Under the pieces are notes generated by a model, which saw nothing but the letters and a program-made list of their open reading frames with translations, was not told where the DNA came from and did not search any database. Positions 15,114-33,773 of a stretch of 33,916 bases of DNA are shown piece by piece; position 1 is the first letter of the stretch; every line of letters starts with the position of its first letter. Origin of the DNA: Dehalococcoidia bacterium (GTDB lineage Bacteria > Chloroflexota > Dehalococcoidia > DSTF01 > JACRBR01); contig JBGQBE010000037.1 in the NCBI GenBank assembly GCA_041494685.1, forward strand, positions 1 to 33,916, in the 5' to 3' direction. The position numbers and the translations under genes are program-made.

Positions 15114-15135
15114 TCCGCAGATTCCACAATTGAAG

Positions 15136-15196
15136 GTGCGCAGTTCACGGTCGGCGGCAACGCCGGCCGTGAACTGCGCACTGGCAACTGCGAACT
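15136..15196. terminator. 21-bp hairpin with GCAA loop after pnp, overlapping heptamer repeats
   Basis: gtgcgcagttcacggtcggcg-gcaa-cgccggccgtgaactgcgcac (one G:U); right arm continues gtgaact gcgcact ggcaact gcgaact. Confidence 0.65.
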
Positions 15197-15215
15197 TCGT
15201 CGCCTAAATCCCTCA

Positions 15216-15245
15216 TTGACACCTCTTCCGGGCCGCCGATAGACT
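15216..15245 (+). promoter_or_regulatory. sigma70-type promoter of dedA-like gene
   Basis: TTGACA-N18-TAGACT. Confidence 0.55.
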
Positions 15246-15298
15246 CGCTGGAGCCGCTGCGGGCCGTCCTCTGCGCCCGAAGTGGAGAGCGGCGCGGC

Positions 15299-15982: not shown

Positions 15983-16082
15983 CGGCGCCTTGGCGGGGTA
16001 TCGTCGCGAACGAATATAGGCTGGCTCATCGTTCCGGGCGCGCGCGCCCGGTGAGCCTCCAGGCAGGGAGAATGAACGGCCT

Positions 16083-17231
16083 ATGATGCTCGTCCGCGTG
16101 ATCACCGCGGCCGTCAAACCGGCGCTGCTCGGCGCGGCTATCTCCGCCGCCGCCGGCGGTGCCTACCTCGCGTACGACCGCTTCGCGCCGCATGCCGATG
16201 TCTCCGCGTTCCAGAGCGTCCAGGGTCACGGCCAGAAGCTGCTGATCAGTGAGTTCGGCGACACCACAGACACCATCGTCGCGGTCGATCCGGATGACGT
16301 CGGCGCCCGCACGACGATCGCCACCATCGACCACGCCAGCGGTTACGGCGTCTTTCCGGTGCTATCGCCCGATGGCCAGGCCATCGCCTACACCGGCCTT
16401 CCGGCAGGCATCCCGAAGCCCGCGCCCGACGCGCCCGCCCAGGCGGGCGTCGTGGACGTGCGCGGCAAGGCGACGCTGCTCGCCGCCGACGCCGACCTGC
16501 TCGTGTCGCCCGTCTGGTCGCCCGACAGCCAGTCCATCGTCGTCCGTCACAGCGTTACCGCTGCGGACGGCAGCGGCACCTACGAACTCCTGCTGCTCGG
16601 CCGCGACGGCGCGCGCGCCTCGCTGACGACGTGGCGCACCGCCTCGCTCTTCCCGATCGCCTTCGCGCCGGACGGAGCGAGGCTGTACTTCGCCACGCTC
16701 AGCCCCGCCGGTACCGACCTCTACGCGATCGGTGCGGACGGCTCCGGAGAGACGAAGATCGCCCACCTCAGCGACGAGATCGCGCGCGACTGGAAGCTCT
16801 CGCCCGACGGCGCCACGCTGGCGTACTCCGTCGCCGAGGGCGGCCCGCAGCCGCAGGTCGTGACGATGACGCTCGCCCTGGCGACCGGCGTCGCCGCGGA
16901 CGCCGTACGGTCGCCGGCGGCGGCGCGCTTGGAGTTCAACCCCGCATGGCAGGCGGACGGCACGCTCACCATCGCGTCGGTGCAGCCGCAGGGCGGCAGC
17001 GCCGTCTCGGTCGTCGCCGCCGCTACCGCAAGGACCCTCACGTCGAATGACGGCGCCATCGACCTGCCGCTGGCGTGGTCGCCGGACGGCGCGAGGCTGG
17101 CGGTGCGCTCCGTCGAAGGCGCGTCTCTCCAGCAAGCGACCGCAAGCCACGTCGAGATCGTCGGCGGCGACGGCAGCCGCCGGCGCGTCTCCGACAGCGC
17201 CGACGTGCTCATCGTGGGGTGGCTGCCATGA
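16083..17231 (+). CDS. Secreted/anchored TolB-like (PD40-repeat) beta-propeller protein
   Basis: N-terminal hydrophobic helix; six repeats PVLSPDG, PVWSPDS, IAFAPDG, WKLSPDG, PAWQADG, LAWSPDG. Confidence 0.8.
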   Translation: MMLVRVITAAVKPALLGAAISAAAGGAYLAYDRFAPHADVSAFQSVQGHGQKLLISEFGDTTDTIVAVDPDDVGARTTIATIDHASGYGVFPVLSPDGQAIAYTGLPAGIPKPAPDAPAQAGVVDVRGKATLLAADADLLVSPVWSPDSQSIVVRHSVTAADGSGTYELLLLGRDGARASLTTWRTASLFPIAFAPDGARLYFATLSPAGTDLYAIGADGSGETKIAHLSDEIARDWKLSPDGATLAYSVAEGGPQPQVVTMTLALATGVAADAVRSPAAARLEFNPAWQADGTLTIASVQPQGGSAVSVVAAATARTLTSNDGAIDLPLAWSPDGARLAVRSVEGASLQQATASHVEIVGGDGSRRRVSDSADVLIVGWLP

Positions 17232-18625
17232 CGCACATCTCGCTGCACGCGGCTGCCGCGCGCATCCGCTCCCTCCGCTCGCGCCGCAACGCGCTGATCG
17301 CCGCCGCGCTGCTGGCGCTCGTCACGGTCGTGACGCCGGGCCGCGCACGCACGCCCGCCGCGAACGCCTGCGCCTTCGACACGCCGCCGACGACGTACGA
17401 GACCACGGAGGACCGCAAGCTGTACATGCAGGCGATGGACCTCGCCGGCAACGACATGCTCTTCCCCAAGGACACGTTCTTCTCGCAGGCATGGATCGAG
17501 ATGGGGCCGCGCAACAACCGCACGCACGCGCCCGTCTACGTGCCGCCGACGCTGCTGAAGTCGATCGCCTGGATCGAGAGCGACGTCTCGCAGGGCGCTG
17601 CGGCGCTGCCGTTCGGCGCCATCGGGCCCGCGCTCGTGTCGTTCGACTGCGGCTACGGCATCTCGCAGGTGACCAGCGGCATGACGACGCCGCTTGGCGA
17701 CGCCGGGCAGGCCAGCGACGACCAGGCGCTCGTGGCGACGCACTTCGCCTACAACATCGGGCGTGGCGCGGCGATCCTGATCGACAAGTGGAACGCGGCG
17801 CCGTCCGACCGGCCGATCGTCGGCATCGACACGAACAGCGACCCGCAGTTCGTCGAGAACTGGTACTACGCCGTGTGGAGCTATAACGGTTTCACCGGCC
17901 CCGGCGCCGACCGCAGCAACCACCCGATGGATCCCATCTACGGCGCCTGGCCGCGCACGCCGTACAGCTGCGGCCCCGCGACCGATGGCCTGGGCCACAA
18001 CCGCAGCCTCTACCCGTACCAGGAGCTGGTATACGGCTGCATGGCCAACCCGCCGCAGGTGCTGAGCAAGCCGCTCTGGGCGCCGCTCGCCGCGACGCTG
18101 CCCGATCTCAACAACCCGTACTGGCGCGCGCCGCTCGCGCTGGCGAACTTCCAGGCGCCGTACGACAAGATGGACCTGCCCACGCCGAAGCCCGCCCACA
18201 AGGACCCGACGCCCAGGCCGGACGCCGCCGCGCGGCTCGCCGTACTCGGCCAGCCCAAGCTCTCCGTCGACCGCCCGATGGTGCTGGTGAACGTGCGTCC
18301 GGGCCAGTCCGCGACGCCCGTGGAAGTGCGGATCACCAACACGGGCACCGGCATCCTGCCCTGGCGTGTCAGCGCCAACAAATCGTGGGTGAAGGTGTCC
18401 CTCCCCGCCGGCGTCGCCGTCGGCAGCGATCTCAAGTGCAACGTCTCGTCGCCCTGTGACCGCACAGCGGTCCTGAAGATCAGCGTCGATCCGTCGAAGA
18501 TCCTGGGCAGCGACACCGCCGTCGTGCACATCAGCGGCCTCGGATTCGGCGTCGGCGGCCAGGACATCGCCGTCTTCGTCAAGGTCAACGTCGCCATCGG
18601 CATCCCCGGCACCACCAAGAACTGA
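17228..18625 (+). CDS. Secreted SLT/lysozyme-like transglycosylase with C-terminal BACON/Ig-like domain
   Basis: ATGA overlap with upstream gene; signal peptide; VPPTLLKSIAWIES (catalytic E), GYGISQV, NIGRGAAIL, AVWSYNG; ITNTGTGILPWRVSANKSWVKVS is BACON-like. Confidence 0.75.
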   Translation: MTHISLHAAAARIRSLRSRRNALIAAALLALVTVVTPGRARTPAANACAFDTPPTTYETTEDRKLYMQAMDLAGNDMLFPKDTFFSQAWIEMGPRNNRTHAPVYVPPTLLKSIAWIESDVSQGAAALPFGAIGPALVSFDCGYGISQVTSGMTTPLGDAGQASDDQALVATHFAYNIGRGAAILIDKWNAAPSDRPIVGIDTNSDPQFVENWYYAVWSYNGFTGPGADRSNHPMDPIYGAWPRTPYSCGPATDGLGHNRSLYPYQELVYGCMANPPQVLSKPLWAPLAATLPDLNNPYWRAPLALANFQAPYDKMDLPTPKPAHKDPTPRPDAAARLAVLGQPKLSVDRPMVLVNVRPGQSATPVEVRITNTGTGILPWRVSANKSWVKVSLPAGVAVGSDLKCNVSSPCDRTAVLKISVDPSKILGSDTAVVHISGLGFGVGGQDIAVFVKVNVAIGIPGTTKN

Positions 18626-21129: not shown

Positions 21130-21176
21130 GATCTTGCCGTCGCCGCGGGTACGCTGCCGGCACGAAGGAGGTGCGC

Positions 21177-21818
21177 ATGGCGCAGCCGATGGTGCTGGAG
21201 CAGATCGAAGACTACGCGGCGCGGCACACCACGCCGCTGCCGGAACTCCTGCGCGAGCAGGTCGCCGAGACCGAGCGCGAGTTCGGCGGCCTCATCTCTA
21301 TGGTCTCCGGCCAGGTCGTCGGCATGACGCTGCAGACGCTGGTCTACGCCCTCGGCGCGAAGCGCGTGCTGGAGATCGGCATGTTCACCGGCGTCAGCGC
21401 CCAGATGATGGCCGCCGCGCTGCCCGACGACGGCCGCCTCGTCACCTGCGACGTCTACCCGAAGGCGATCGAGTTCGCGAAGCGCTACTTCGCGCGCAGC
21501 CCGCACGGCCACAAGATCGAGGTGCGCGAAGGGCCGGCGCTGGAGACGATGAAGACGCTGGTGCCGGGCTTCGACTTCGTCTTCATCGACGCCGACAAGT
21601 CCAACTACCTCAACTACTACGAGGCGGCGCTGCCGCTGCTCGCGCCGCGCGGCATCATCGCCGTCGACAACGTGCTGTGGAGCGGCAACGTGCTGGACCC
21701 GAAGGACGACGACAGCCGCGCCATCGTGGCGTTCAACGCCCACGTCCAGGCCGACCCGCGCGTCGTCAACGTCCTCCTCACCGTCCGCGACGGCCTGCTG
21801 CTCATCCGCCGCGCGTGA
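21177..21818 (+). CDS. SAM-dependent O-methyltransferase (COMT/CCoAOMT-like)
   Basis: AAGGAGG RBS; RVLEIGMFTGVSA, FDFVFIDADKSNY, IAVDNVLWSG, VRDGLL. Confidence 0.93.
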   Translation: MAQPMVLEQIEDYAARHTTPLPELLREQVAETEREFGGLISMVSGQVVGMTLQTLVYALGAKRVLEIGMFTGVSAQMMAAALPDDGRLVTCDVYPKAIEFAKRYFARSPHGHKIEVREGPALETMKTLVPGFDFVFIDADKSNYLNYYEAALPLLAPRGIIAVDNVLWSGNVLDPKDDDSRAIVAFNAHVQADPRVVNVLLTVRDGLLLIRRA

Positions 21819-21947: not shown

Positions 21948-23705
21948 TCAGCCGAAGCGCATGCCAAACAAGCCGCCGTCTACCGTCGCGTCCGTTAGGC
22001 GCACCGGCAGGACGTGCTCGCCAAGCTCAAAGGCGTCTCGAAATTCGTCAGGCAGCACGTCGGAGTTCATCGTCACGACGTATTGGAAGCCTCGCGCTTC
22101 GGCTTCTCTAGCGCCGACGGCGAATGCGGTAGCGACTTGGCGGGAATCAACTCCGTCAAACAAGTGACTATCATGCACGAGGAACCCAGGCCCGCCATGC
22201 CGGTCCGAAATCATTCTCATCAACATCATGTCGAAACAGAACACCTGCATGTTGCTGATACCGTGGCTCTGCGATCCGTGGATAGACACTTGCAGTTCAG
22301 GACCATTTCTCGTCGGATTGAGGGTGAGGCTACCGGCTTCCTCGTAGAGGTCAGCAGAGACTTCCTGAAAGCTAACGATCGCTTTTCGCACGACGCCATC
22401 CTGCTCGTCGTAGTCCTCGCGCAGCCTCAGCAACAGCTGGTTCCGCTCGATATCGAGTCCAGTCTTCTCGCTCTCTAGACGTTCTGCGGTGCGATGGCGT
22501 TCCCTCAGTGCTTCTGCTTGGCTCTCCGCACGCGACAGTTCCTGTTGGATTCCGGCGAATTGCTCGAGTGCGCCACCCGACTGAAGAATGGACATGATCT
22601 CGCGGCTTCGTCGGCCTATGGATTGCTTCTCGATGTCTCGTGCAGAAATACGAGCTTGAGCGGCGTCGAGTTCGCCGGATAGATAGGAGCGACGGTTATC
22701 GACGACCGATCGATGAAATTGCTGCACCTCTTCGAACCGACGGAGCGCCGTGTCGGGAAGAGTGATACCGACCTCATCAAAGAGTCGGCCAAGGTCGTTG
22801 TCCCGCGGAGGTGCCTCGGCCTCGACCGACTTTTCGAGATCAGAGACAAATTGGCGATCGAGAGTGTTGTCGTCAGACAACTCGCGGAGGCGCGTGGCCA
22901 ACTGGGCACCTTCGATCTCGAGCTCTCGGTATTGCGGTACCACTTGAAACGTCCGAACTTGGTCACCGAGTCGCTTGGAATGCTCCTCAGCGAGAGCCAC
23001 TTGGGTTCTGAGTTCAGCGGCGCTGCCTATGATTGAGCCGAAGCCGCCCTGCTTTGCTGCGCTCCGTAATTGGCCGAGCGCCTTTTCTCTGTCGCGCACC
23101 AGTTGCCATTGTTGCGGAATCGTCCAGTCGAGCCCCAAGAGGTAGGACAGAGCTACCTGTTGATCCCATAGCTGCTGCTGCTCGTACTGCTTGAAAGGAG
23201 AGGCGAATGCACCATCGGATTGCCGTCGAGCGAAATACGAGAATAGAGATCTAAATGTCGCAGAGAACTTCTGCGCGGTGTGCTGCCGGTCCAAACGGAA
23301 CATGAGTTGACCAAGAACGTCCTTCCACTCGGTATTTGAGAGTGAGAGTTCGTTCGAACCTTGGCTGCTCTTTGGCTGCACTGGCCACGACGCGGTCTCG
23401 CCCGACGATACGGCGACCCTGTTCGGCCGCCCGCCAGAGCGCTCAACGGTGACCCTGCTACCACCGAGATCGAACTCGATACCAAACCGGTATGGGCTAA
23501 GTTGCTCATTGCGGAAGATTGAGCCCGGGTCAGCGTTTCCTCCCATGAGGAAGTGGATGAGCTCCACGAAGCTGGTCTTACCGGAGCCGTTCCGTGTTTG
23601 CCGCTCGGTCGCGCCGGGCGCGCGATCTGCGACCAGAATGTTGAGCCCACTACGCAGCTCAAGGTTCTTGAAACTGGGCAGGTCGCTAAATATTCGATGG
23701 ATCAT
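21948..23705 (-). CDS. Lamassu/ABC-three-component SMC-like ABC ATPase (LmuB-like, DUF2326-type C-terminus)
   Basis: N-terminal Walker A RNGSGKTS, central coiled coil, [13 protein letters not shown], Walker [21 protein letters not shown]. Confidence 0.88.
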
Positions 23706-23946
23706 CGCGCCTAGTCAATCGCCCGGAAGTGTACTCAATCGCACTGACGGCATATAGGAAGTCGAGTGCCAAGACGAACCAGTCGAAGGTGATCGGAGTT
23801 CGACCACTCAATCCAGTCCTGCGTTCCCGTTGCGTTTCGCTCCAGAGCCTCGAGACAGTCTTCGGCTGGTCTAGCAGGCGTAACAGTTGGGCCGCGACTC
23901 CTAAGATCGACGTGTCCGCGCTGAGCCTCTTCGTCGGAAGTATCAC
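23686..23946 (-). CDS. ABC-three-component middle component (LmuC-like, 86 aa)
   Basis: MILPTK...TVSRLW...[14 protein letters not shown]; overlaps both neighbours. Confidence 0.85.
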
Positions 23947-24866
23947 GTGCCCTCTGCTGGGCGTTCAAAGATGTCGCACTGCTCAAAGAGATGTGCGATC
24001 ACGGCCAAGACCGCCGCTTCGTGCCTCGGCGTGCCCCGCATGCCTCCTCCCGCAAAGGCCTGAAGGTCCGCGAAGATCTCATCCGGACCCATACCCGCTT
24101 CCCGTAAGCGAACATACTCAGCACGAAACGCCATGGCTACGCGATCTCCGAGCAGGGGGTCGTGCCACCGCTGGAAGAAGTCTTCGACCAGGTTCGCGCG
24201 GGTCATGTCGAGCCGAAGCAGTGCGGCCACGTCCTCCGACAGGGCGTTCGCCGCGAGTTTACGTGCCGGTACCGGACGCATGTCGGAATCGTCCGTCGGT
24301 TGAGCGTGAGCGATCGTCCCGGTAACGACTTGGATTTCGTCAAACCCGACGGACAGCATCGCGCGCTGTGACGGCGCCGGGCCAAACACCATCTCAAGTT
24401 CGGCGATCCCTAGCGCAGACACCTCTGTCCAGAGCTCCGCGAAGCCGAAGTGCCCGACGGCTACGTCGGTAGACTCGCCGTCCAATTCCAAGAGCTTCTT
24501 CGTGATCGGCGGCGAGAGCCCTTCGCGCGAGTTGTGTACGAAGCTCCAACAGTCAAAATGCTCCGCCCAGTATGGTAAGCACTCGTGAAAGTCTTCATCG
24601 ATCTTCTTGATGGCGGTCGCGGCGTCCATGTCGTTCGGCGCGTACACTTGGAAGATGACGCGCTTGGATCTCAGATAGCCATCGTTCTTGCGGTCTCCCT
24701 CGCGGCCCCATGGGCGTACACGAACGAAGTCCGACGGATAGCGCAGCTCCATGATCTCGCAGAAGAGATTCTGAAATTCCGAGCCGCGTTTCTTATGAAA
24801 GTCCCGCTCAAACACTACGTCGTAGTAGGCGCGCGATGGGTCGCGAGTGCCGAGATCGCTCGTCAA
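23943..24866 (-). CDS. ABC-three-component effector (LmuA-like): restriction-endonuclease-fold N-domain plus system-specific CTD
   Basis: GGAGG before TTG; EFQNLF...GDRKNDGY...FQVYAP; C-terminal RKLAANAL...HLFEQCDIFE typical of ABC-3C CTDs. Confidence 0.8.
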   Translation of the reverse strand: MTSDLGTRDPSRAYYDVVFERDFHKKRGSEFQNLFCEIMELRYPSDFVRVRPWGREGDRKNDGYLRSKRVIFQVYAPNDMDAATAIKKIDEDFHECLPYWAEHFDCWSFVHNSREGLSPPITKKLLELDGESTDVAVGHFGFAELWTEVSALGIAELEMVFGPAPSQRAMLSVGFDEIQVVTGTIAHAQPTDDSDMRPVPARKLAANALSEDVAALLRLDMTRANLVEDFFQRWHDPLLGDRVAMAFRAEYVRLREAGMGPDEIFADLQAFAGGGMRGTPRHEAAVLAVIAHLFEQCDIFERPAEGT

Positions 24867-24927
24867 TGATCCTCCGCATCTCCGCTGCGCAAGGTTACCA
24901 CGCGAGGCAGTCGCCCGCCCCCCCCAC

Positions 24928-26280
24928 TCACCCGTCCAACACCCCCGCCTCCCGCTGCTCCTCGATCCACCGCCGGAACTCCCCCTCCGGGTCCTCCACC
25001 CCCAGCTCGTCCGCCGCGCGGCGCCGGCTGTGGATGCCCGCGCCCACCAGCGCCCGCTCGTCGTCGACCAGCCGGCTGCGGTCCAGCGGCAGCACGCTGC
25101 CCCACACCACGCGCGAGCGATACGGCGAGTAGCCCACGCGCGGCTGCGCGTACTGCTCCAGGATCCGCAGGATCATCTCGTTGCGCCGCCGGTACGCCGC
25201 CGCGCGGATCAGCCGCTTCCGCTGCACCTTCTTCAGCAGCGGGTCCAGCTCCACGTTCAGCGCCACGCCCGACAGCCCGGAGCGGTTGTCGCCGAACGCC
25301 GTCCGCGGCGACTCGCCCAGGTCGTGCAGCGCCCGGTAGATCAGGTCCACGTAGTCGGCGTGCAGCTTGACGCCGCCGCCCTGCAGCAGGTCCAGCAGGT
25401 AGGCGCGCGCCCGCTCCGGCAGCTCCCACACCGCGCCCGGCATCACCGCGATGTCCGTCGACTCGCTGACGTTCTCCAGCACGGCGATCGGGTTGCCGCT
25501 CAGCTCCAGGATCATCGAGAGCTGCGTCAGCGCCCGGTTCAGCTCGCGCACCGGCTCCTTGATCGCCGGCAGGTCCGAGACGCCCCAGAACTGCTTCGGT
25601 TCGCGGATGTTCGGGTAGATGACGAACGGGATGAAGCCGTACGGATTGTCGCGCTCGTCGATGCGCGTCCCGTCCGCCCACAGCTCGAACCGCTCCGCCG
25701 TCCACACCTCCACGATCTCGACCGCCGCCGCCTGCGTGCCGGCGCGGGCGCGCGCGCCCTTCGGCGTCACGCCGTACATCGTCCGCGCGGACTCCGCGTC
25801 GAGGCTGTAGCGGCTCGCGACGCGCCACACCCGCGACACGTCGTCGCCGCACCACCACGCGAAGATCCCCTGCACGTCCGGCGCGGTGACGCGCACGCGC
25901 TGCTCCGCCGCGTCCCACGTCACCTTGTACGCGCCGTCGCCCAGGATCGCCGCGTCGATCTCCGTGTCGAAGTCGAGCTGGTCGAGCTGGTTGGCGTCGT
26001 ACACCAGCGCCAGCGTCTGCTCGGCCGCGCGAGCGCTCGCCGCGGCCTCGGCCGTGTCGTCCGCCGGGTCCACGGCGAAGTTCAGGCCGGAGACCAGGTA
26101 CGACGTCGTCTTGTCGATGATCGTCTTCGCGTAGTTGAAGACGAGGCGGCGGTTCTTCTGCCGCAGCATCGACGCCGGCCACTGGTCGCCGCCGTAGAAC
26201 GCCAGGTGCTCGCCGTAGCGGCGCAGCCGCGCCGCGTCCATCTGCCGGATCTGCTGCGGGATCGTCTGTGTGGCGGTCAT
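24928..26280 (-). CDS. Phage portal protein, SPP1 gp6-like (450 aa)
   Basis: FYGGDQW, LVFNYAKTIIDKTTSYL, NPYGFIPFVIYPN, GVSDL, SGVAL; GAAGGAG RBS; ATGA overlap; downstream of terminase. Confidence 0.85.
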   Translation of the reverse strand: MTATQTIPQQIRQMDAARLRRYGEHLAFYGGDQWPASMLRQKNRRLVFNYAKTIIDKTTSYLVSGLNFAVDPADDTAEAAASARAAEQTLALVYDANQLDQLDFDTEIDAAILGDGAYKVTWDAAEQRVRVTAPDVQGIFAWWCGDDVSRVWRVASRYSLDAESARTMYGVTPKGARARAGTQAAAVEIVEVWTAERFELWADGTRIDERDNPYGFIPFVIYPNIREPKQFWGVSDLPAIKEPVRELNRALTQLSMILELSGNPIAVLENVSESTDIAVMPGAVWELPERARAYLLDLLQGGGVKLHADYVDLIYRALHDLGESPRTAFGDNRSGLSGVALNVELDPLLKKVQRKRLIRAAAYRRRNEMILRILEQYAQPRVGYSPYRSRVVWGSVLPLDRSRLVDDERALVGAGIHSRRRAADELGVEDPEGEFRRWIEEQREAGVLDG

Positions 26281-26660
26281 GTGCGTGCTCCTTCCCGTTG
26301 CGCGCCTGCCAGCGAGGCGCCCTGCTCGTTGAGAATGCGGAAGATGCTGCGTCGCGTCAGCCCGTACGTGTCCGCGAGCAGCCCGATCGGCGCCCGGTAG
26401 CGATGCCGCAGCAGCGCGATCTCGCGGTCGCGCGACGCCGCGCCCGGGTTGCGCGGCCGCCGCGGCTCGTCGAACTTGCAGCGCTCCAGCGGGCAGCCCA
26501 GGCAACTCGGCGAGGCCTCGCAGCCGGTATCGCGGTAGTCGGCGTGCTCCGGCAGCGTGTCGCGCCGCACCAGCGCCAGCGGCTGCGTGCGCGGCGGCAG
26601 CAGCCGCAGGCGCGTCCGCCTGCCGCGCGGCGGTACATCGTCGTATCGCAGTGCCACCAT
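26277..26660 (-). CDS. Cys4-cluster plus Mor-like HTH putative transcription regulator (127 aa)
   Basis: C-x5-C-x2-C-x4-C (GCEASPSCLGCPLERC) then RDREIALLR...LADTYGLTRRSIFRIL; GGAGGAGG RBS. Confidence 0.7.
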   Translation of the reverse strand: MVALRYDDVPPRGRRTRLRLLPPRTQPLALVRRDTLPEHADYRDTGCEASPSCLGCPLERCKFDEPRRPRNPGAASRDREIALLRHRYRAPIGLLADTYGLTRRSIFRILNEQGASLAGAQREGART

Positions 26661-26699
26661 CTGGTCCTCCTCCCCGCCCTGCCCCTCTCCGCTGCCGCG

Positions 26700-28124
26700 C
26701 TACGCCTCGCGCACGCGGCCGGTCGCGGCGCGCCGCTGCCGCGCCGCCGATGCGCGCACGAGCAGCGCCGCGCTCACCAGGTAGTCGTCGTGCCCCTCCG
26801 CCGGGTCGACGTAGAAGTTCATCGTCGAGTTGGCGCGGTACGTGTGCCGTGCGCGCTCCGCCTGCCGCCAGAACTCCCCGTGCTCCGGCGACTCGTCGCC
26901 GCGGTACGCCTTCAGCCGGCCGCCGTTCACCGCCGCCAGCAGTCCGAAGCCCAGCTGCGACTTGCTCTCCGCCGTGAACTTCACGGCGTCCACGCGCGAG
27001 CCGCCGAGCGCCGCCGCCAGCAGCCGCGCCGCCGTCTCCCCGAGCCCCGTCGCGTCCACGCCGACGCGGTGCACGCGCCACACGTTGCGCAGCAGGTCGA
27101 TGAGCTGCGGCAGCAGCGTCTCGTGCGGCACGCCGGTCCACGCGTAGTGCTCGATGATCTCGACGCGCGGCTCCGCGACCAGCGCGCCCGTCGGCGGGTA
27201 CACCAGCCGTCCGACCGTCAGCACCGTCGCGTCGTGCCCCGCGCCCGACGCCGCCTCTGCCCCCGTCGGCGCGTCCGCGTCGCCGCCCGCAAGATCCAGC
27301 CCGGCGGCGTAGTCTTCGCCCGCGACGGGCGCGCGCAGCCGCTCGTGCGCCCCGGCGAGCTGCGCCCGCTGCGCGGCGGTGAACAGCCGTCCGCCGCCGG
27401 CGATCGGCTGCAGGCAGTACTGCGTCAGGAAGAGCGGGTGCGTGTCGCCCAGGCGCCGCCGCTCCGACTCCACGTACGCCGCGTAGGCCGGATTGTGCCG
27501 CGCCACCACCTGCCAGTCGTACTCGAAGTGGCGGCGCACGCCGTCGCGGCGCTCCGCCTCCAGGTTCGCCTGCTTCGCGCGTTCCAGCAGCGTCGTCTCG
27601 TCCCACGCCGTGCCGTAGTAGACGGTCGTCGCGTTCGCCGTCGCCGCCATCGGCCGGAACTCGCGGTCGAACTTGTCGATGTCGACGTCCTGCGCCTCGT
27701 CCACCTCCAGCAGCAGCGACGCCGTGTGCCCCACGACGTGCGCGCCGCGCTCCGCCGAGAGGAACAGCACCCGCGCCTGCCCCGCGACGATCGCGTTCGG
27801 TTCACGCCGCGCGATCGGCCCCAGCCCCGCCTGGCCCAGCCGCAACCACAGCCGCCGCATGCTCATCGCCAGCTGCGGCTGGAACGTCGGCGCGCACTTG
27901 ATCGCGTCCGACGCGGCGCCGCGGCGAGAAGCCGCCGCCAGCAGCAGCGTCTCCACCTGCGCCGACAGCTCGTTCTTCCCGCCCTGCCGCGCGATCTCGA
28001 TCGTGATCGTGTGCCCCAGCCCCTCGCGCACCGAGCGCAGGATCGCCCGCCCCGCCTCGCGCTGGTACGGGCGCAGGACGGGCAGCGAGGCGGGCCCGCG
28101 GCGTCGCACTGTCGCCGTACTCAT
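26700..28124 (-). CDS. Terminase large subunit (474 aa)
   Basis: Q-motif LRPYQ, Walker A ARQGGKN, Walker B LLEVDEAQD, coupling YYGTAW, RNase H-fold nuclease GLDLA / VDATGLG / GHDD; ATGA overlap. Confidence 0.88.
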   Translation of the reverse strand: MSTATVRRRGPASLPVLRPYQREAGRAILRSVREGLGHTITIEIARQGGKNELSAQVETLLLAAASRRGAASDAIKCAPTFQPQLAMSMRRLWLRLGQAGLGPIARREPNAIVAGQARVLFLSAERGAHVVGHTASLLLEVDEAQDVDIDKFDREFRPMAATANATTVYYGTAWDETTLLERAKQANLEAERRDGVRRHFEYDWQVVARHNPAYAAYVESERRRLGDTHPLFLTQYCLQPIAGGGRLFTAAQRAQLAGAHERLRAPVAGEDYAAGLDLAGGDADAPTGAEAASGAGHDATVLTVGRLVYPPTGALVAEPRVEIIEHYAWTGVPHETLLPQLIDLLRNVWRVHRVGVDATGLGETAARLLAAALGGSRVDAVKFTAESKSQLGFGLLAAVNGGRLKAYRGDESPEHGEFWRQAERARHTYRANSTMNFYVDPAEGHDDYLVSAALLVRASAARQRRAATGRVREA

Positions 28125-28405
28125 GCCGTCAGCCTCAGCACCAGCTGCGTCACCACCGCGCCCGCGACCACGAACAGCAGCCCGTTGATCCGTGTCCGCA
28201 CCTCCGCCACGTCCCGCTCCAGCGCCCGCAGCCGCTCCGCCACCAGCATCCGGAACGCCGGCGCGCTCATCGACTCGATCGGCTCCGCGTCCGCCGCGCG
28301 TGCCCGCCGCATCCGACGCCCGAAGCGCGCCAGCGCGCGCGACAGCGCGTCGTCCGGCGGCGTCTCGGCGCTCGTCTGTGTGTGCTGCGGCCCTTCCTGC
28401 GTCAT
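28121..28405 (-). CDS. Coiled-coil plus C-terminal TM protein (XhlA/holin-like architecture, 94 aa)
   Basis: GAGGAG RBS; ERLRALERDVAEVRTRIN then GLLFVVAGAVVTQLVL. Confidence 0.65.
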   Translation of the reverse strand: MTQEGPQHTQTSAETPPDDALSRALARFGRRMRRARAADAEPIESMSAPAFRMLVAERLRALERDVAEVRTRINGLLFVVAGAVVTQLVLRLTA

Positions 28406-28416
28406 GCCCACGCTCC

Positions 28417-28752
28417 TCACACGTCGTCGCCATTGTCGGACGCGCCGAACAGCGACTCCGCCACGCGCTCCAGCGCGCCCCCAACGCTCTCGCCGAGCTC
28501 CTGCGCCTGCCGCGGACTCATCCGGTAGCGCGCCCGCGCCGTCCGCACGATCAGCCCGACGCCCTTGAACATCAGCTCGAAGTCGTTCGGGTTCTCGCGC
28601 AGGTGGCGGTCCAGCCGCGTCCGCAGCAGCGCCAGCTCCGCGTCCACGTTCTCCAGCGCCGCCGCCTCCGCCATCTCCGTCGCCTTGTCGATGGCGCGCG
28701 AGTAGAAGTTGGCCGCGCGTGCGTGCGCCCGCCGCTCATCGTCCCTGCGCAT
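28417..28752 (-). CDS. Helical protein (111 aa), candidate terminase small subunit
   Basis: GGAGG RBS; NFYSRAI...VDAELALLRTRL; size, helicity and position upstream of TerL. Function is inference. Confidence 0.55.
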   Translation of the reverse strand: MRRDDERRAHARAANFYSRAIDKATEMAEAAALENVDAELALLRTRLDRHLRENPNDFELMFKGVGLIVRTARARYRMSPRQAQELGESVGGALERVAESLFGASDNGDDV

Positions 28753-28918
28753 CGCCGTCCGCCTCCGTCTCCGGCCGCGACAGCAGCGCCAGCACGTCGT
28801 CGATCGTGCCCGGCGGCAGCGTCCGCGCCGCCATCGCCACCCCCAGCAGCAGCCGCAGCGCCACCCGCTCCATCTCGCCCCGCCGGATCGCCGACCGCAT
28901 CGCCGCCTCGCCCGTCAT
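28736..28918 (-). CDS. Small hypothetical protein (60 aa)
   Basis: GGAGGG RBS, ATGA overlap with upstream gene; MTGEAAMRSAIRRGEMERVALRLLLGV... Confidence 0.6.
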   Translation of the reverse strand: MTGEAAMRSAIRRGEMERVALRLLLGVAMAARTLPPGTIDDVLALLSRPETEADGDAQGR

Positions 28919-29238
28919 CGCACCCTCCGCAGGATCAGCATCGAGAGCAGCAGCGTGCCCGCCAGCAGCGTCGCGCGCGATGCCAGCCACGGCGCGGTCG
29001 CGAAGTACGGCGCCGTGTCCGCGCCCAGGCGGTGCGCCGCGTAGAGCGTCTGCGCGAACGCCGCCTGCACGGCGATGCCCGCGTTCAGCGTCGCCAGCAC
29101 GGCGGCCGCCAGGCGCAGGCCGCGCTGCTCGCTGCGCAGCCAGTGGCCCGCGAGCCAGGCGGCGTTGAACGCGGCCGCGACGGCCGTCGTCGCGTCGGCG
29201 GCGAAGATCAGTGAAGGTCCGGCGTCCACGCGTCGCAT
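28915..29238 (-). CDS. Small membrane protein with about 3 TM helices (107 aa), first gene of packaging operon
   Basis: GGAGAAAGG RBS; three hydrophobic stretches; basic C-terminus RRVR. Confidence 0.7.
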   Translation of the reverse strand: MRRVDAGPSLIFAADATTAVAAAFNAAWLAGHWLRSEQRGLRLAAAVLATLNAGIAVQAAFAQTLYAAHRLGADTAPYFATAPWLASRATLLAGTLLLSMLILRRVR

Positions 29239-29285
29239 GCCTTTCTCCGTAAAGGGTGGGCGGGGTGGAGAACGTCCTGGCCGGT

Positions 29286-29315
29286 ATACTAGAACAAACG
29301 TTCTATTGGAGTCAA
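29286..29315 (-). promoter_or_regulatory. sigma70-type promoter with LexA (SOS) box in spacer
   Basis: Minus strand TTGACT-N18-TAGTAT; palindrome TAGAAC-AAAC-GTTCTA at 29290-29305 matches the GAAC-N4-GTTC box of Firmicutes/Actinobacteria/Chloroflexota LexA. Confidence 0.85.
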
Positions 29316-29424
29316 GCCCCGCATGTCACATCCGCCGTTGTTGCGCCGTGGACGGCGCTCAGCGCGCAGGGGGGGATTGACGGGTCAAGAGCACTGGTAT
29401 ATATCCTTAGTAGATCGGAGTTGC

Positions 29425-29577
29425 GTGGCAGATACCAAGAAGATCGGCGTGGTCATGCTGAAGGGGTGCCGCTGCCGTTGCGGGCACGAGTGGTTGCCGC
29501 GTGGCGATGAGACGCCGCGCGTCTGCCCTACATGCAAGTCCCCCAACTGGGATAAGCCTAAGCAGGCGGCGAAGTAG
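29425..29577 (+). CDS. Small zinc-ribbon protein (50 aa)
   Basis: GGAG before GTG; CRCGHEW.PR....PRVCPTCKSPNWD; TAG abuts ATG of the R-M gene. Confidence 0.7.
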   Translation: MADTKKIGVVMLKGCRCRCGHEWLPRGDETPRVCPTCKSPNWDKPKQAAK

Positions 29578-31548
29578 ATGCCGCGCAAGAAGCCCCACGT
29601 TGCGCCTGCCGCGCCGCCGCTCACCTCTACGAAGCACGAGACGGAGGTCGAGGCCTACGACTACATACGCCGTCAACTCAGAGAGCTTGGGTGGGCTGTC
29701 AGGAACCCCAGCCTTGGCACCGGCGGTCACGTATGGACTCAAAATCAGTGCTTGAGCCACCCAGCAATCAAGAGTGCCCTGGGCACGACCCGTCCCGAGA
29801 ACATCGTAAGACTCACGGAGCACTATCTGTGGGTCATCGAGTCCAAGGCCGCGAGAAAGGACATTGATCTCGCGGTGCATGAAGCGCAAAACGACTATGC
29901 CAAACCGATAAACGATCTCAGCGGTGATGTGGAGGCTTTACTGACCTCGGGCGTCGCGGGAGATGAGGCGTCCGGCTACGCGGTGCGGACGTTCATTCGG
30001 CTCGATGAGAGGTGGCGGCAAGTCACCATTAACGGCCAGGAAGCGACGGGCCTTCTTTCCCCTGACGACGTGCGCGTCTTGTTGGAGGGCGGGACCTCAG
30101 ATATTCACGAGTTCGCGCCACCTCAATGGCTCTTTCTTTCCGCAGCAGAGCGCATCAACAAAATCCTTCATCAAGGCGGCATAAACAAGGAAACTCGTGC
30201 CAGAACAATTGCGGCGCTGCTGCTTTCTGTCGTGGATCAGCCGCCGAATCTCGACACTGAACTCTTAGTCTTGATCGAGGAAATCAACGCACGCAGCAAG
30301 TCGATTCTCACCAAGAACGGTAAGCAGGAGTTTGCTCCCTTCGTCCACATCCTTCCACCGACAAACTCGAACAACCATTTCAAATTTCAAGCCGCGCTCG
30401 TAAAGACCATTCAAGAACTACTGAACCTGAACATCAGGTCAGCCATGAACTCAAGCACTGACGTTTTGGGTGAGTTCTATGAAGTGTTTCTCAAGTACGG
30501 GAACGGGGCGAAGGAAATCGGCATCGTTCTCACGCCGAGGCACATCACTCGATTTGCTGTGCAGGCTGTTGGTGTCGGTCCGACCGATGTCGTGCTCGAT
30601 CCTGCTTGCGGGACAGGCGGCTTCCTGGTCGCAGCCTTCGATCATATTCGACAAACGGGCACGCCCTCGCAACTCGATCGATTCAAGCAGCGCAACCTTT
30701 TCGGCATCGAACAGGAGTCGTACGTTGCTGTCCTCGCCATCGTCAACATGATCTTTAGGGGGGACGGCAAGAATAACATCATCGAGGGCAACTGCTTTAC
30801 CACAAACTTGATCGCTAAGAGCAAAGACGGATACCCCTCCGCCGCGTACGTCAAGGAAGCGCCAAAACTTGGAACACAGGCGGTTACGCGTGTCTTGATG
30901 AATCCACCATTTGCGGTGCCGGGTTCCCAAGACAAGGAATACAAGTTCGTTTCGCGGGCGCTTGAATTGATGGTGGATGGCGGCATCCTGTTTAGCCTAC
31001 TACCCATGGACAGCATGTTCGGCGCGAACGAAGAGAAGGTCTGGCGAGAAACCGAATTGCTTCCTCACCACACACTGCTCTCCGTTATCAGCCTGCCGGA
31101 CGAACTGTTCTACCCGGCAGCATTGAAGCAGGTCGTGGCTGTAATCATCCGAAAGGGCTTTCCCCATCCCAAACAACAAGCTGTGTTCTGGGCACGGATC
31201 GATGAGGACGGCCACCTAAAAGTCAAAACCCGGAGGCTCGAAGCTTCGGAAATGCGCCCACCTCGGATGGCGAACGATGACATACCGCAAGTCTTACCCC
31301 ACCTACGAAGCTTCGTAAACAACCCATCAGGAACTTCCGTCAATGAGCCAATGCTCTGCAAGACGGCAGCCATTAACTTTGATGATCCGCTGCTGGAGTT
31401 GCTTCCCGAAGCATATCTAGACAGTGCCATTCCGACTCATGCCGAGCTTGAGGCGGAAATCGATCGTATGGCCCGAGAGACCGCAGCCCAACTCATTCGT
31501 TTCGGCACGGAACGACTTGCGGGAGCCTTCGATGGCAACAATAGCTAG
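29578..31548 (+). CDS. Fused endonuclease/N6-adenine methyltransferase (BcgI alpha-like, type IIB R-M)
   Basis: N-terminal RPE...VIESK; DVLGEFYEVFLKY, GIVLTPRHI, motif I LDPACGTGGFL, motif IV MNPPF. Confidence 0.85.
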   Translation: MPRKKPHVAPAAPPLTSTKHETEVEAYDYIRRQLRELGWAVRNPSLGTGGHVWTQNQCLSHPAIKSALGTTRPENIVRLTEHYLWVIESKAARKDIDLAVHEAQNDYAKPINDLSGDVEALLTSGVAGDEASGYAVRTFIRLDERWRQVTINGQEATGLLSPDDVRVLLEGGTSDIHEFAPPQWLFLSAAERINKILHQGGINKETRARTIAALLLSVVDQPPNLDTELLVLIEEINARSKSILTKNGKQEFAPFVHILPPTNSNNHFKFQAALVKTIQELLNLNIRSAMNSSTDVLGEFYEVFLKYGNGAKEIGIVLTPRHITRFAVQAVGVGPTDVVLDPACGTGGFLVAAFDHIRQTGTPSQLDRFKQRNLFGIEQESYVAVLAIVNMIFRGDGKNNIIEGNCFTTNLIAKSKDGYPSAAYVKEAPKLGTQAVTRVLMNPPFAVPGSQDKEYKFVSRALELMVDGGILFSLLPMDSMFGANEEKVWRETELLPHHTLLSVISLPDELFYPAALKQVVAVIIRKGFPHPKQQAVFWARIDEDGHLKVKTRRLEASEMRPPRMANDDIPQVLPHLRSFVNNPSGTSVNEPMLCKTAAINFDDPLLELLPEAYLDSAIPTHAELEAEIDRMARETAAQLIRFGTERLAGAFDGNNS

Positions 31549-32488
31549 TCTCTTCAAGCTGCATCGATCAAGGTCTGTGGCCTACGACGACCACGCACCG
31601 GGTCTCGTACCTTTCATCAGCAACGGTGAGCACGACGCTGGTGTACTCGGGTACGTGGAGCCACTTCCGGGCGAGACTGTCTTTGACTTCGTCGGAGTAG
31701 TGGTGTCGGCTCTGAGTGGCGCTGCGGTTCATGCGCCGCCCTACATTGCTCGCGGTGGAGCTGGAAGCGGTCTAGTCGTTCTTGAGCCGCGTGAAAAAAT
31801 GTCGCCACAACAGTTGGCGTATCTCGCGGCCTATTTCAACCGCACGGCCAAGTGGCGCTTCCACTGGTACAGGCAGCTAACGACGGATCGGCTCCTTCCC
31901 ATTGAGATGCCTGCCGCAATACCTCCGGGCGTCCGGTTTCCCGTTGAGAAGGTATTGCCTCCGCAGTTAGCGCCAGCGAAACGACCCAGTTGGCGCGGAA
32001 CGTTCGCGCCGGTTGCATTAGACACCATCTTTCATCTCAAGTCTGGCGATCATCACGTACTCGGCGACCTATTGCCGGGAAAGACGCCTGTAGTTTCATG
32101 CGGTGATGGAGACAACGGGATCGCAGGCTTCCACGACGTGCCTGCCCCGTATCAGGGGTCACTAACCATTGCCTTTAACGGAATGAACACCTTGACGACG
32201 AAGTATCATCCCTACCGCTTCGCCGCAAAAGATGATGTTGCAATATGCACCCCGAGGAAACCTCTTCGATTGACGAGCCTGCTGTTCGTTCAGGTAATGC
32301 TCAACCGAGAACGCTGGCGCTATTCCTACTACCGCAAGTGCTACATGAACAAGCTGCCCAGGTTTGAAGTGCCGTTGCCCTTCAAGAATGGCGGCCTAGA
32401 CGAAGACCTTATGGAGATGCTTGTGACCACCGCTCCTTATTGGGACTACCTCAAGACATGGACCTCTGGGACGGACGCCTTCCTTTAG
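31532..32488 (+). CDS. R-M specificity subunit with two TRDs (BcgI beta-like)
   Basis: Internal duplication VPFISNGEHDAGVLGY / TPVVSCGDGDNGIAGF and KWRFHWYRQ / RWRYSYYRK; overlaps the RM gene. Confidence 0.82.
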   Translation: MATIASLFKLHRSRSVAYDDHAPGLVPFISNGEHDAGVLGYVEPLPGETVFDFVGVVVSALSGAAVHAPPYIARGGAGSGLVVLEPREKMSPQQLAYLAAYFNRTAKWRFHWYRQLTTDRLLPIEMPAAIPPGVRFPVEKVLPPQLAPAKRPSWRGTFAPVALDTIFHLKSGDHHVLGDLLPGKTPVVSCGDGDNGIAGFHDVPAPYQGSLTIAFNGMNTLTTKYHPYRFAAKDDVAICTPRKPLRLTSLLFVQVMLNRERWRYSYYRKCYMNKLPRFEVPLPFKNGGLDEDLMEMLVTTAPYWDYLKTWTSGTDAFL

Positions 32489-32636
32489 GGGCAACCCAGT
32501 CGTTATGAGGCAAGAGCCCGCCTTGCGGGAGCCGGGCCCCCCTCGGGTGATCCCCCGGATTTGGAGATCGCGCCGCACACCCCCTAAGTTCGCAGGCACA
32601 TGATCTGAGTCGATGCGAAAGTGGGAGGTTGCTGCC

Positions 32637-33485
32637 ATGCCACGTGCCAAGCCTAAGTCTGACGTCGGCCGCGCGATGACGCGCTTCAACGCCCTGCGCC
32701 ACGGGCTGACCTCCACCGCGCCCGTGATCCCCGGCGTCGAGTCGGACGACGAATGGGAGTCCCACCGCGAGGCCATCGTCGCCGACCTGGCCCCCGCCGG
32801 CGCCACCGAGTCGGCACTCGCCGAGCGCATCGCCGCGCTGGCGTGGCGGCTCCGCCGCGTCGAGCGCTACGAGTCCGTCGCCATCGCCGTCGGCCGCGAG
32901 CGCGTCGACCACGACGTCGCCCTGCGGCAGCGCCGCCTCGGCCTGCCCGCCACCGTCGACCAGGCGCAGCTCCTCGTCGAAGACGCCCACCGCTGCCTCG
33001 ACATCGTCGAGCACCTGCTCGACACGCCGCCCGCCACTGGCCTCGCCGCCGCCGACGCGGCCGCCATCATGGAGGCGCTCGCCTCGTCCGCCAGGGCCGA
33101 CGTGGCCACCTACGTCGAAGGCATCGACGAAGCCGCGGACGGCGGCGGGTGGACCGTCGGCCGCCTGGTCGCCGTGATGGAAGCGCTCGCCGCGCGCGAC
33201 GGCGAGGCCTTCGTCGACGTCCTCGCCGCCGCTGTCGCCCGCGCCCGCACCGTCGCCGGCGACACCCGCCTCTCGCTCGTCCGCCTCGACGAAGAGATCG
33301 ATCGCCTCCGCCGCGAACGCCTCCTCCCCGACGCCCCCACGCTCGACAGGATCATGCGCCACGAGGCCAATCTCAACCGCATGTTCTACCAGGCCCTCAA
33401 CCAGCTCGAAGCCGCCCAGTCCCGCCGCTGCGGCGCCCCAACCCCCCTCCACCGCATCCAGGCCTACGGCCTCCCCGGCGGTTAG
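32637..33485 (+). CDS. Hypothetical helical protein with NALRHGL...WRLRR motif (282 aa)
   Basis: GGGAGG RBS; FNALRHGLTS, LAPAGATESALAERIAALAWRLRRVERYE, RHEANLNR; host-like GC. Confidence 0.8.
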   Translation: MPRAKPKSDVGRAMTRFNALRHGLTSTAPVIPGVESDDEWESHREAIVADLAPAGATESALAERIAALAWRLRRVERYESVAIAVGRERVDHDVALRQRRLGLPATVDQAQLLVEDAHRCLDIVEHLLDTPPATGLAAADAAAIMEALASSARADVATYVEGIDEAADGGGWTVGRLVAVMEALAARDGEAFVDVLAAAVARARTVAGDTRLSLVRLDEEIDRLRRERLLPDAPTLDRIMRHEANLNRMFYQALNQLEAAQSRRCGAPTPLHRIQAYGLPGG

Positions 33486-33513
33486 CGGAACGCGGTGCCG
33501 CATGCCCAATCAA

Positions 33514-33631
33514 GTTAAGCTCCGCCCGCCGAAAGACCCGCAGCATCATCCCCGTAGGGACAGGGCTTCAGCCCTGTCCGCCCGGCCGTTCAGCTCCGCC
33601 CGCCGAAAGATCCGCAGCATCATCCCCGTAG
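33514..33631 (+). repeat. Two 44-bp direct repeats around a REP-like hairpin (copy 3)
   Basis: 33514-33557 and 33588-33631 differ at 2 positions; GTAGGGACAGGGC-TTCA-GCCCTGTCC spans the first junction. Confidence 0.8.
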
Positions 33632-33773
33632 TCCGCCCCGCCTCCGGTCGTCGCCGTGCCGTCGCCGCGCCCCAGGCGATCAGGGCGCCTCTCCCGGAAA
33701 GGTCGAAATTACAAAACAGGTACATCGCCAGATACGAATCGCGAAACATAACTAAAACGGAGGTACCCCAACC

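Follow-up and report, generated by a model that had tools for sequence, protein, structure and literature searches.

The window analysed here is a whole 33.9-kb contig (C37 below; JBGQBE010000037.1, 33,916 nucleotides) of a Dehalococcoidia bacterium, and a minus-strand operon within it, at 24928-29238, probably encodes the DNA packaging machinery and portal of a particle system of phage origin that has been inherited vertically in the class Dehalococcoidia for a very long time. Function as a gene transfer agent (GTA) is the most likely reading of this system, and we hold it with moderate confidence. Its domestication and its organisation over several loci are plain from the comparison of genomes: the genes are intact, and they are as constrained as a housekeeping gene. 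An earlier note, written from the letters of the window, had proposed a domesticated phage-derived packaging module; distribution, synteny, tree, selection and nearest homologues all favour domestication.

The operon consists of seven co-oriented genes, most of them overlapping (Table 1). In order of transcription these are TM107, p59, p111, p99, TerL (the predicted large terminase), CysHTH (a protein with a Cys4 motif and a helix-turn-helix, HTH) and the portal. Five of the six junctions overlap, TM107/p59 and p99/TerL by ATGA, p111/p99 by GTGA, p59/p111 by 16 nt and CysHTH/portal by 7 nt; a gap of 39 nt separates TerL from CysHTH. Open reading frame (ORF) coordinates and junction sequence bear out the chain of overlapping or ATGA-coupled genes that the earlier note had described, on the minus strand. 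Codon-position GC marks the frames as coding (GC at third positions, GC3, 0.83-0.94), and no terminator-like site was found in the operon region scanned. The host-like composition noticed before also holds: GC is 0.71-0.76 in the operon versus 0.55-0.62 in the cassettes on either side and about 0.685 in the genome (G000; 3.29 Mb, 87 contigs, 97.6% complete, ~68.5% GC). As had been stated for the window, none of its 31 ORFs scanned matched an integrase, repressor, replication, capsid or tail family; the rest of it carries dnaA, an McrBC-like system, rpsO, pnp, groEL and other housekeeping genes. Because dnaA lies in the same window, the operon is origin-proximal.

Among 61 relatives, 53 have the portal gene (39/41 of the high-quality genomes), with coverage of all 31 genera and five families of the order. 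In an even sample of 301 genomes of the class it occurs in 187 (159/253 of high quality; 111/177 genera), with 52-86% identity among the listed matches, and some families of the class are without it (0/20, 0/9 and 0/7). Small complete genomes are among those that have it. The unpublished genome G021 is included in these portal counts and excluded from the trees and rate estimates. The capsid gene is found in 54/61 relatives (38/41 of high quality) and the gene for the tail hub in 52/61 (39/41). Portal, capsid and hub are all missing from G056, which is a single contig, and from G059, and G051 retains only a 63-residue portal fragment; the genes of the system tend to be present or missing together. 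With the portal in 53/61 relatives and 187/301 genomes of the class, the distribution is not the patchy one that the earlier note had named as the mark of a decaying remnant.

Gene order is equally stable. TerL, CysHTH and portal follow one another in all 18 relatives' loci inspected, and among those loci that reach upstream of TerL, tblastn recovers p99 in 16/16, p111 in 14/16, TM107 in 7/16 and p59, the least conserved member of the operon, in 1/16. The closest homologues are chromosomal and do not lie in prophages. In a species-representative collection, the 73 related loci carry the labels Chloroflexota, Chloroflexi, Chloroflexia, Dehalococcoidia, Dehalococcoidales or Thermomicrobiales, apart from one with the bare title 'uncultured bacterium'.

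Maximum-likelihood trees of the portal and of polynucleotide phosphorylase (PNPase), built for the same 21 genomes, have every strongly supported clade in common and no supported conflict. The common clades are the home family (100/100), three pairs or triplets inside it, and the pairs of families f2 and f5. Portal identity is 75-86% within the family and 66-74% outside it, and the same genomes give 78-88% and 58-65% for PNPase. The ratio of nonsynonymous to synonymous rates (dN/dS) in the same 20 genome pairs is 0.13-0.54 (median 0.30) for the portal and 0.16-0.49 (median 0.26) for PNPase, both crude Nei-Gojobori estimates in which dS is compressed by a GC3 near 0.9, so that absolute values are inflated and the comparison alone counts. 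Selection on the portal is purifying, as strong as on PNPase. On the same crude scale the capsid gave 0.11-0.20 in 10 of 11 same-family pairs, TerL had a median of 0.41, and CysHTH gave 0.43.

The head genes, which had been expected elsewhere in the genome, are indeed there, scaffold and capsid on contig C1, adaptor and hub on contig C14. Searched for the HK97 capsid family, the genome gave one match, a 295-residue protein on C1, preceded by an Ala/Glu-rich coiled-coil protein of 185 residues that resembles a scaffold. The pair is flanked by hemA-like and luciferase-like genes, and the contig extends at least about 85 kb beyond it on either side. The capsid matches NCBIfam NF045672, the epsilon15 gp7 equivalog, at 5.6e-61 and phrog_212 at 8e-74; an encapsulin reading was rejected, given the scaffold upstream, the gp7 equivalog match and the single block that the gene forms with portal, adaptor and hub in sister families. 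The C14 locus was found by searching the genome with the proteins of the G048 cluster described below. It holds an adaptor (213 residues), a 658-residue hub (L132, G000:C14:14000-33999, at 8895-10871) and a 69-residue protein, between rpsF-ssb-rpsR and an M20 peptidase gene; the adaptor orthologues of G048 and G046 match SU10_adaptor of Pfam (5.7e-7 in G048). All three loci (C37, C1 and C14) sit among housekeeping genes. Integrase, replication and repressor families had no match in the flanks of the C1 and C14 loci, and no tailspike, replication or lysogeny gene was found in the system.

The same system, split over three loci here, forms a contiguous block next to dnaN in sister families. In families f3 and f5 the capsid lies a few kb downstream of the portal on the same contig. 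The complete chromosome G048 carries, in order, the packaging genes, portal, three unrelated genes on the opposite strand, scaffold, capsid, p132, p126, adaptor, a 660-residue protein, p70, p120 and dnaN, so that the whole particle-gene cluster ends beside dnaN. The layout is also contiguous in G046, G058 and contigs of IMG/VR, the last reading TerL, (CysHTH), portal, scaffold, capsid, (p132), adaptor, hub, p69. Families do not all have the same genes: p132, a 132-residue protein encoded after the capsid, is confined to f3 and f4 (9/10 genomes; 0/50 in f1, f2 and f5). The extra small genes of the f3/f4 cluster (p132, p126 and p120) are at 8152-8953 and 11590-12136 of L128 (G048:C1:960000-979999). 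In family f5 a gene for a membrane protein of the haemolysin-III family stands between portal and scaffold (L129 of G046, 16576-17241; L130 of G058, 1790-2440), and its product is a possible release factor.

Structure prediction gave a confident model of the hub, with a predicted local distance difference test score (pLDDT) of 91.5. Part of it matches gp27, Mu gp44, VgrG and the hubs of contractile injection systems, with E values of 1e-14 to 1e-11 (TM-score about 0.7 to Mu gp44), and beta-propeller lectins are matched at about 1e-8. From its secondary structure we placed a beta-propeller domain, seven-blade-like, in the predicted all-beta N-terminal part. Hub identity is 44-62% in the family and 33-37% outside, hence 33-62% overall versus 66-92% for portal and capsid. 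Such fast evolution is expected of cell-surface recognition proteins, and a hub modelled with a beta-propeller could bind cells.

Within the operon, the portal is readily recognised, matching SPP1_portal of Pfam (PF05133, 1.4e-19) and phrog_64 (2.1e-28). TerL required more evidence, as its one sequence match is Terminase_6C at 2.5e-5. Across 22 diverse orthologues the Walker A (RQGGKN), Walker B (LLEVDE) and YGT motifs are invariant, and so are the acidic residues of the nuclease (D277, D357 and D446-D447). Its AlphaFold model has a mean pLDDT of 69 and is poor in the ATPase domain; the best Foldseek matches of the model are nonetheless phage large terminases, those of HK97 (4e-10), PhiV-1, T4 (gp17) and Sf6, and the nuclease domain reaches a TM-score of about 0.7 to the G20c TerL nuclease. 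A profile of the 22 orthologues found nothing among PDB sequences, and most of 120 listed homologues are nameless or 'hypothetical protein', a single one being named terminase. By its motifs and modelled fold, the gene is classed as a phage large terminase, with a predicted additional-strand catalytic-E (ASCE) ATPase and an RNase H-like nuclease with its catalytic acidic residues. The claim that both sets of motifs are intact was thus right.

The small proteins proved harder to name. In TM107 two hydrophobic 19-mers, starting at residues 43 and 85, are clear and a third, at the N-terminus, is weaker; Pfam, PHROG, NCBIfam and PADLOC gave no family match. A transmembrane (TM)-like segment occupies residues 77-99 of p99, whose likelier start is the ATG at 28405 and whose weak PHROG matches are all to families of unknown function. 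With such segments, both TM107 and p99 may be holin-like. p111 had been labelled a candidate small terminase (TerS), a label that finds no support beyond its position in the operon. Pfam, PHROG, NCBIfam and PADLOC give no match, and its profile has chance helical matches in PDB at E >= 0.12. In Atlas it falls into hypothetical clusters of Chloroflexota, the nearest named cluster being T5_Terminase_small at 0.81, below the tool's reliability line. It evolves fast (33-45% identity, crude dN/dS about 0.9), and a small terminase is a possible identity for it.

We then turn to control of the operon. TTGACT-18-TAGTAT is the sole sigma-70-like promoter on either strand of 24600-29500 (1 found, 0.1 expected), and a LexA-type palindrome lies within it. 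The 16-mer TAGAAC-N4-GTTCTA has two copies in the 3.29-Mb genome; the second fronts imuB-like and dnaE2 genes with the same promoter design, and imuB-dnaE2 is the classic SOS mutagenesis cassette. Genes for an MrfA-like helicase and a ComM-like protein are preceded by exact GAAC-N4-GTTC boxes in promoter-like settings, such boxes also adjoin DinB_2 and SprT-like genes, and lexA and recA have boxes with one mismatch. The bare 12-mer box is enriched just 1.6-fold (44 versus 27 in shuffles) and the 14-mer occurs 3 times versus 0.3. In 39 of 60 relatives' loci, the 2 kb upstream of TerL contain the same three-part arrangement, in which an exact box adjoins the -10. A palindrome within the promoter that is common to the genome's SOS genes identifies the site as a predicted LexA operator of the Cheo-box type. 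At the level of sequence, then, this palindrome and its twin at imuB-dnaE2 support the SOS-box control claimed in the earlier note.

The promoters of the other two loci are built differently. Those of scaffold-capsid and adaptor share GTGATCC-N-GCTTGGAG(A/T)TCGC, which at the capsid locus is kept in 8 of 11 same-family loci with a scaffold match, the remaining three having close variants of it. Both the shared GTGAYC element upstream and the -35 are retained at the capsid and tail promoters. Upstream of the G010 adaptor the family-type capsid-promoter motif is absent, which is uninformative. In G048 (family f3) the scaffold and p132 promoters have GTGACA, a -35 and a degenerate box abutting TATTCT. 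Because they keep this degenerate box, the palindrome was probably ancestral at all promoters of the system and lost at two of them, those of capsid and tail, in the home family.

The element GTGAYC...CTTGGAG was also tried as a marker of further loci of the system and rejected, as it fronts unrelated genes and a seven-copy repeat family. Within the window, an ORF of 290 residues (32613-33485, plus strand) stands behind a promoter-like motif, GTGATCC...TTGGAGATCGC, as do the capsid and adaptor loci. This ORF has a chance-level Cas1 match only, and its paralogue on contig C47 (C47:18916-19471) has the motif in front too. A related promoter and 5'-untranslated region (5'-UTR) element is found at seven sites, six elsewhere in the genome and one at window 32548, each followed by a GAAC-N4-like box. 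The motif 'GGTCGAAATTACAAAAC' also comes after several repeated promoter elements elsewhere in the genome. At window 33490-33700, near the contig end, there are two direct copies of a ~40-nt unit and short tandem repeats of GGTTCT type.

Table 1. Features of the packaging operon, its promoter and the adjoining cassettes in the window.
Feature	Position	Strand	Basis or remark
Promoter/operator region	29283-29329	-	sequence read
GTGACA upstream element	29329-29324	-	
-35 TTGACT	29315-29310	-	
LexA-type palindrome TAGAAC-N4-GTTCTA	29305-29290	-	overlaps -10
-10 TAGTAT	29291-29286	-	18-nt spacer from -35
TM107, first gene, 107-aa membrane protein	28915-29238	-	ORF and GC3
p59, 59-aa protein, ATGA-coupled to TM107	28737-28916	-	
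p111, 111-aa all-helical protein (predicted)	28417-28752	-	
p99, 99-aa coiled coil with C-terminal TM segment/hydrophobic helix	28121-28420	-	
TerL, 474 aa, predicted ATPase and RNase H-like nuclease	26700-28124	-	
CysHTH, Cys4 zinc ribbon and HTH, 127 aa	26277-26660	-	
Portal (SPP1 gp6 family), 451 aa, last gene of the operon	24928-26283	-	
PDC-M68/ABC-3C two-gene candidate defence cassette, downstream of portal	21948-24866	-	PDC-M68B 1.8e-160, PDC-M68A 5.6e-28
Type IIG restriction-methylase and specificity-subunit-like gene	29578-32488	+	divergent from operon promoter

CysHTH, encoded between TerL and the portal, may connect these promoters. The four cysteines of its C-x5-C-x2-C-x4-C motif are invariant in an alignment of 15 sequences, and in a wider one of 27 a single sequence (L071) is without the fourth; the HTH that follows is likewise conserved. 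At lenient thresholds the orthologues match HTH_23 or HTH_7 (12/15), Sigma70_r4 (7/15) and Mor (3/15). The window's own copy had no match in the same HTH-family scan, and a CysHTH profile gave nothing below E 0.36 against PDB. A FastTree of 87 portal sequences has only IMG/VR contigs on its deepest branches, all with no CysHTH match and with TerL within 83 nt of the portal, and the chromosomal copies near that of the window all have CysHTH; this tree is midpoint-rooted, and the polarity of gain or loss of CysHTH is thus not set. The HTH type and the position in the operon suggest a regulatory role, and make CysHTH a candidate dedicated transcription factor that would pass the signal of the LexA-controlled operon on to the promoters of capsid and tail. 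A role as DNA-recognition (TerS-like) subunit is equally plausible.

Put together, the pieces suggest the following course of events. DNA damage would lead to cleavage of LexA and derepression of the operon, and the CysHTH made from it would act on the capsid and tail promoters. Scaffold, capsid and portal would build a procapsid, TerL would fill it with DNA, and adaptor and hub would close a stubby-tailed particle. Once released, the particle would deliver its DNA to neighbouring cells, as GTAs do. Coats of the epsilon15 type form a T=7 head that holds about 40 kb, and by analogy the head here would be no larger than T=7. Since the genes are spread over three contigs and at least about 85 kb separates the capsid from the nearest contig end, no single head of this size could carry all three loci, and a system of which no head holds the whole set could not move itself.

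The best-known system of this kind is RcGTA of Rhodobacter capsulatus, whose 'genome' is described as multilocus by Hynes et al. 2016 (PMC5026251). The two are alike in having head, tail and packaging genes of phage origin that lie in the host chromosome with no genes for replication or integration, are spread over several loci and are kept widely and vertically in a large taxon; a link to host regulators is known for RcGTA and predicted here. Their LexA connections differ: LexA acts on RcGTA indirectly, via CckA (PMC6363796), whereas here a predicted LexA-type operator lies in the structural-gene promoter itself. Beyond common folds we found no homology between the two systems. A scan of 12 system proteins against NCBIfam gave capsid models only, and in it no RcGTA head-tail family was matched, the results being the epsilon15 gp7 equivalog, a weak HK97 match and chance coiled-coil matches. 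Unlike RcGTA, which has a long tail, the present system pairs an epsilon15 gp7-type capsid with a stubby tail of adaptor and hub, and its hosts are Chloroflexota and not Alphaproteobacteria. Production of particles and transfer by them are proven for RcGTA and predicted here.

The nearest described logic for the proposed CysHTH relay would be, by analogy, the late promoter P3 of the Bacillus thuringiensis phage GIL01, which is under LexA control (Fornelos et al. 2018, PMC6182141). In both, host LexA rather than a phage repressor would occupy boxes inside a virion-gene promoter. GIL01 needs a small element-encoded DNA-binding protein at the -35 for late expression, and CysHTH is the candidate counterpart. 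GIL01 is a replicating temperate tectivirus, unlike this non-mobile chromosomal gene set. Its activator, gp6, is described there as a LexA homologue, whereas the candidate here combines Cys4 with an HTH that resembles sigma region 4; for the corepressor gp7 of GIL01 no counterpart is known here. Dedicated GTA activators of the GafA/GafYZ type (PMC6363796, PMC9638019, 10.1101/2023.11.12.565669) offer a second parallel, in that a small dedicated regulator would link a global host signal to the structural promoters. CysHTH differs from them in being encoded inside the packaging operon, and no sequence relation to them has been found or tested.

As to the origin of the particle, short-tailed phages of the epsilon15/SU10 type come closest, by the capsid equivalog (5.6e-61), SU10_adaptor (5.7e-7) and the order TerL, portal, scaffold, capsid, adaptor, tail tip. 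The differences are a tail tip formed by a predicted gp27/Mu gp44/VgrG-type hub fused to a beta-propeller, a hub fold that matches best the baseplates found in long-tailed phages and in contractile injection systems, and the fact that no fibre, tailspike, lysis, replication or lysogeny genes were recognised. No cultured phage is close: among 50,697 GenBank phage records the best identities are 24% for the portal and 41% for the capsid. IMG/VR holds 41 loci at 45-66% portal identity, many of which look like chromosomal fragments. A few of them, contigs of 13-17 kb on which TerL abuts the portal and the gene order is permuted (as in L181, L183 and L194), may be small short-tailed phages.

Phage-derived particle and packaging genes lie in the chromosome without replication, integration or lysogeny modules, and they have been inherited vertically over a long time under purifying selection; both are features by which GTAs are recognised. 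Several points weigh against function as a GTA. A search for sequencing runs gave 24, every one a DNA metagenome and none of RNA. The system is dispensable, having been lost in G056 and G059, and mobile elements interrupt the portal or capsid in G039, G041, G044 and G047. The ATPase domain of TerL is poorly modelled, the dN/dS estimates are crude, as noted above, and searches in Pfam, PHROG, NCBIfam, Atlas and with PDB profiles identified no small terminase. Neither the capsid nor the adaptor promoter of this genome has a LexA-like box, even if one mismatch is tolerated, which makes co-induction of the capsid and tail loci with the operon a hypothesis, and the motif common to the two promoters also precedes unrelated genes. 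p132 was found neither in the home family (0/35) nor in this genome (best E 0.27), and the search for a tail fibre gave nothing. At the three loci no gene was recognisable as an endolysin or another lysis enzyme. The genome encodes Mur ligases and penicillin-binding proteins, so there is a peptidoglycan wall to be breached, and the idea that a holin alone would suffice for want of a cell wall was rejected for the same genes. Finally, L181 and L183, possible real phages, nest among chromosomal copies in a low-GC portal branch, and exchange with phages is therefore possible.

Among the alternatives, the one that survives best is that the system is domesticated for a purpose other than gene transfer to kin, its particles packaging DNA after damage for another end. 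They might free DNA through altruistic lysis, dispose of damaged DNA or store it, kill competitors, or act as a decoy or abortive response when phages infect. All the evidence of domestication fits this equally well, SOS control would suit a response to stress or infection, no function on the recipient's side is known, and the operon occupies a spot that has collected defence cassettes in this genome. We nevertheless regard it as unlikely, if worth keeping in mind. A complete DNA motor whose nuclease is conserved, together with capsid, adaptor and a hub that evolves fast and bears a lectin-like propeller, amounts to equipment for bringing DNA to a cell surface; killing or decoy roles would not require DNA to be packaged.

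Nor do the defence neighbours speak for such a role. From them the earlier note had drawn an anti-phage function as its alternative, and here it fared poorly: the cassettes are low in GC, neither has a match in any of the 18 relatives' loci, and 0/7 operon proteins match a PADLOC model. With no match in those loci, the neighbours are recent insertions and not partners. The PDC-M68/ABC-3C pair (GC 0.57-0.62) has matches to CTD10 and DUF2326, and the Type IIG genes (GC 0.54-0.57) match REase_MTase_IIG (2.1e-45), Specificity_II (2.9e-11) and N6_Mtase (3e-29).

A system that is still selfish, as a grounded small phage or a satellite with mobilisable parts that persists by transfer, seems to us improbable. 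Related contiguous modules do exist on IMG/VR contigs, and the abutting TerL and portal and permuted order of L181, L183 and L194 are consistent with small circular genomes, some of these contigs nesting within the chromosomal clade. No integrase, replication or repressor gene was found at any of the three loci, however, the loci fall on three separate contigs, at least about 85 kb lies between the capsid genes and a contig end, the tree tracks that of the hosts, and the nearest relatives are chromosomal. Phage satellites, both phage-inducible chromosomal islands (PICI) and capsid-forming PICI, were rejected as a class for the missing integrase or replication module, the fixed position and the vertical descent.

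That the operon is a decaying, functionless prophage remnant is very improbable and already contradicted by the conservation and selection data: the window has no neighbouring phage genes and some relatives have copies with frameshifts or interruptions (several of these in assemblies that are of low quality or from long reads), yet the seven frames are intact, the catalytic motifs invariant and the constraint like that of PNPase, with GC and codon-position GC like the host's and presence in 39/41 high-quality relatives across five families and in 187/301 genomes of the class. A prophage or cryptic remnant was likewise rejected as a class, there being no integrase and the intact, constrained genes being near-universal, with host-like GC and GC3.

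Taking GTA function as the preferred reading, we put forward a fuller proposal tentatively, with rather less than even confidence. Dehalococcoidia would have a class-wide GTA of independent origin from a small short-tailed phage, fired by SOS directly through a LexA operator on the packaging operon; a Cys4 factor resembling sigma region 4 would relay the signal to the capsid and tail promoters; and portal and capsid would be integration sites of serine-recombinase prophages, which could switch the agent off and on. Experimentally shown GTAs are known from few lineages only. If the reading is true, a GTA in Chloroflexota would be a further, independent domestication, with a different type of particle (epsilon15-like head, tail of adaptor and hub) and a simpler control logic, the LexA operator standing on the packaging operon. 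Dehalococcoidia include organohalide-respiring bacteria and abundant bacteria of sediments and the subsurface; they are hard to grow and genetic tools for them are largely lacking. A native particle that packages and delivers DNA would, if real, explain gene flow among them, for instance of reductive dehalogenase islands, and might become a tool. The system also offers a clean example of a phage head module dispersed and rewired after domestication, the predicted LexA box being kept here only on the packaging operon. In the literature searched, with subscription journals and supplements outside the search, we found no description of these genes or of a GTA in Dehalococcoidia or Chloroflexota. 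New for this genome are the three-locus map, the twin operator at imuB-dnaE2, the probable loss of the palindrome at capsid and tail promoters in the home family, and the modelled hub fold.

Several relatives have a portal that is interrupted near residue 230 by ~14-15 kb of inserted DNA, as in L037 (G041:C1:625000-644999, at 4074-18314), L038 (G039:C3:222000-241000, at 2295-16743) and L184/L206 (IMGVR_UViG_2708742476_000001). Both inserts examined have a gene for a large serine recombinase directly beside the N-terminal portal fragment; that of G041 also has a prohead protease and looks like a prophage. Between the 14-kb inserts of G041 and G039, tblastx found no homology (nothing at 1e-10). 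The capsid is likewise split in G039, G044 and G047, and conserved particle genes seem to serve as integration sites.

Around the operon, the DNA between the portal and the O-methyltransferase gene (window 21132-21818) varies from genome to genome; in G001 and G010 this gene lies 0.7 and 3.4 kb from the portal end. Elsewhere in the window, the stretch 5080-9823 has dnaA and, directly after it, a McrBC-like restriction system of lower GC, with AAA_5/nSTAND-like ATPase ORFs, possibly frameshifted at 7650-7752, and a McrC-like gene.

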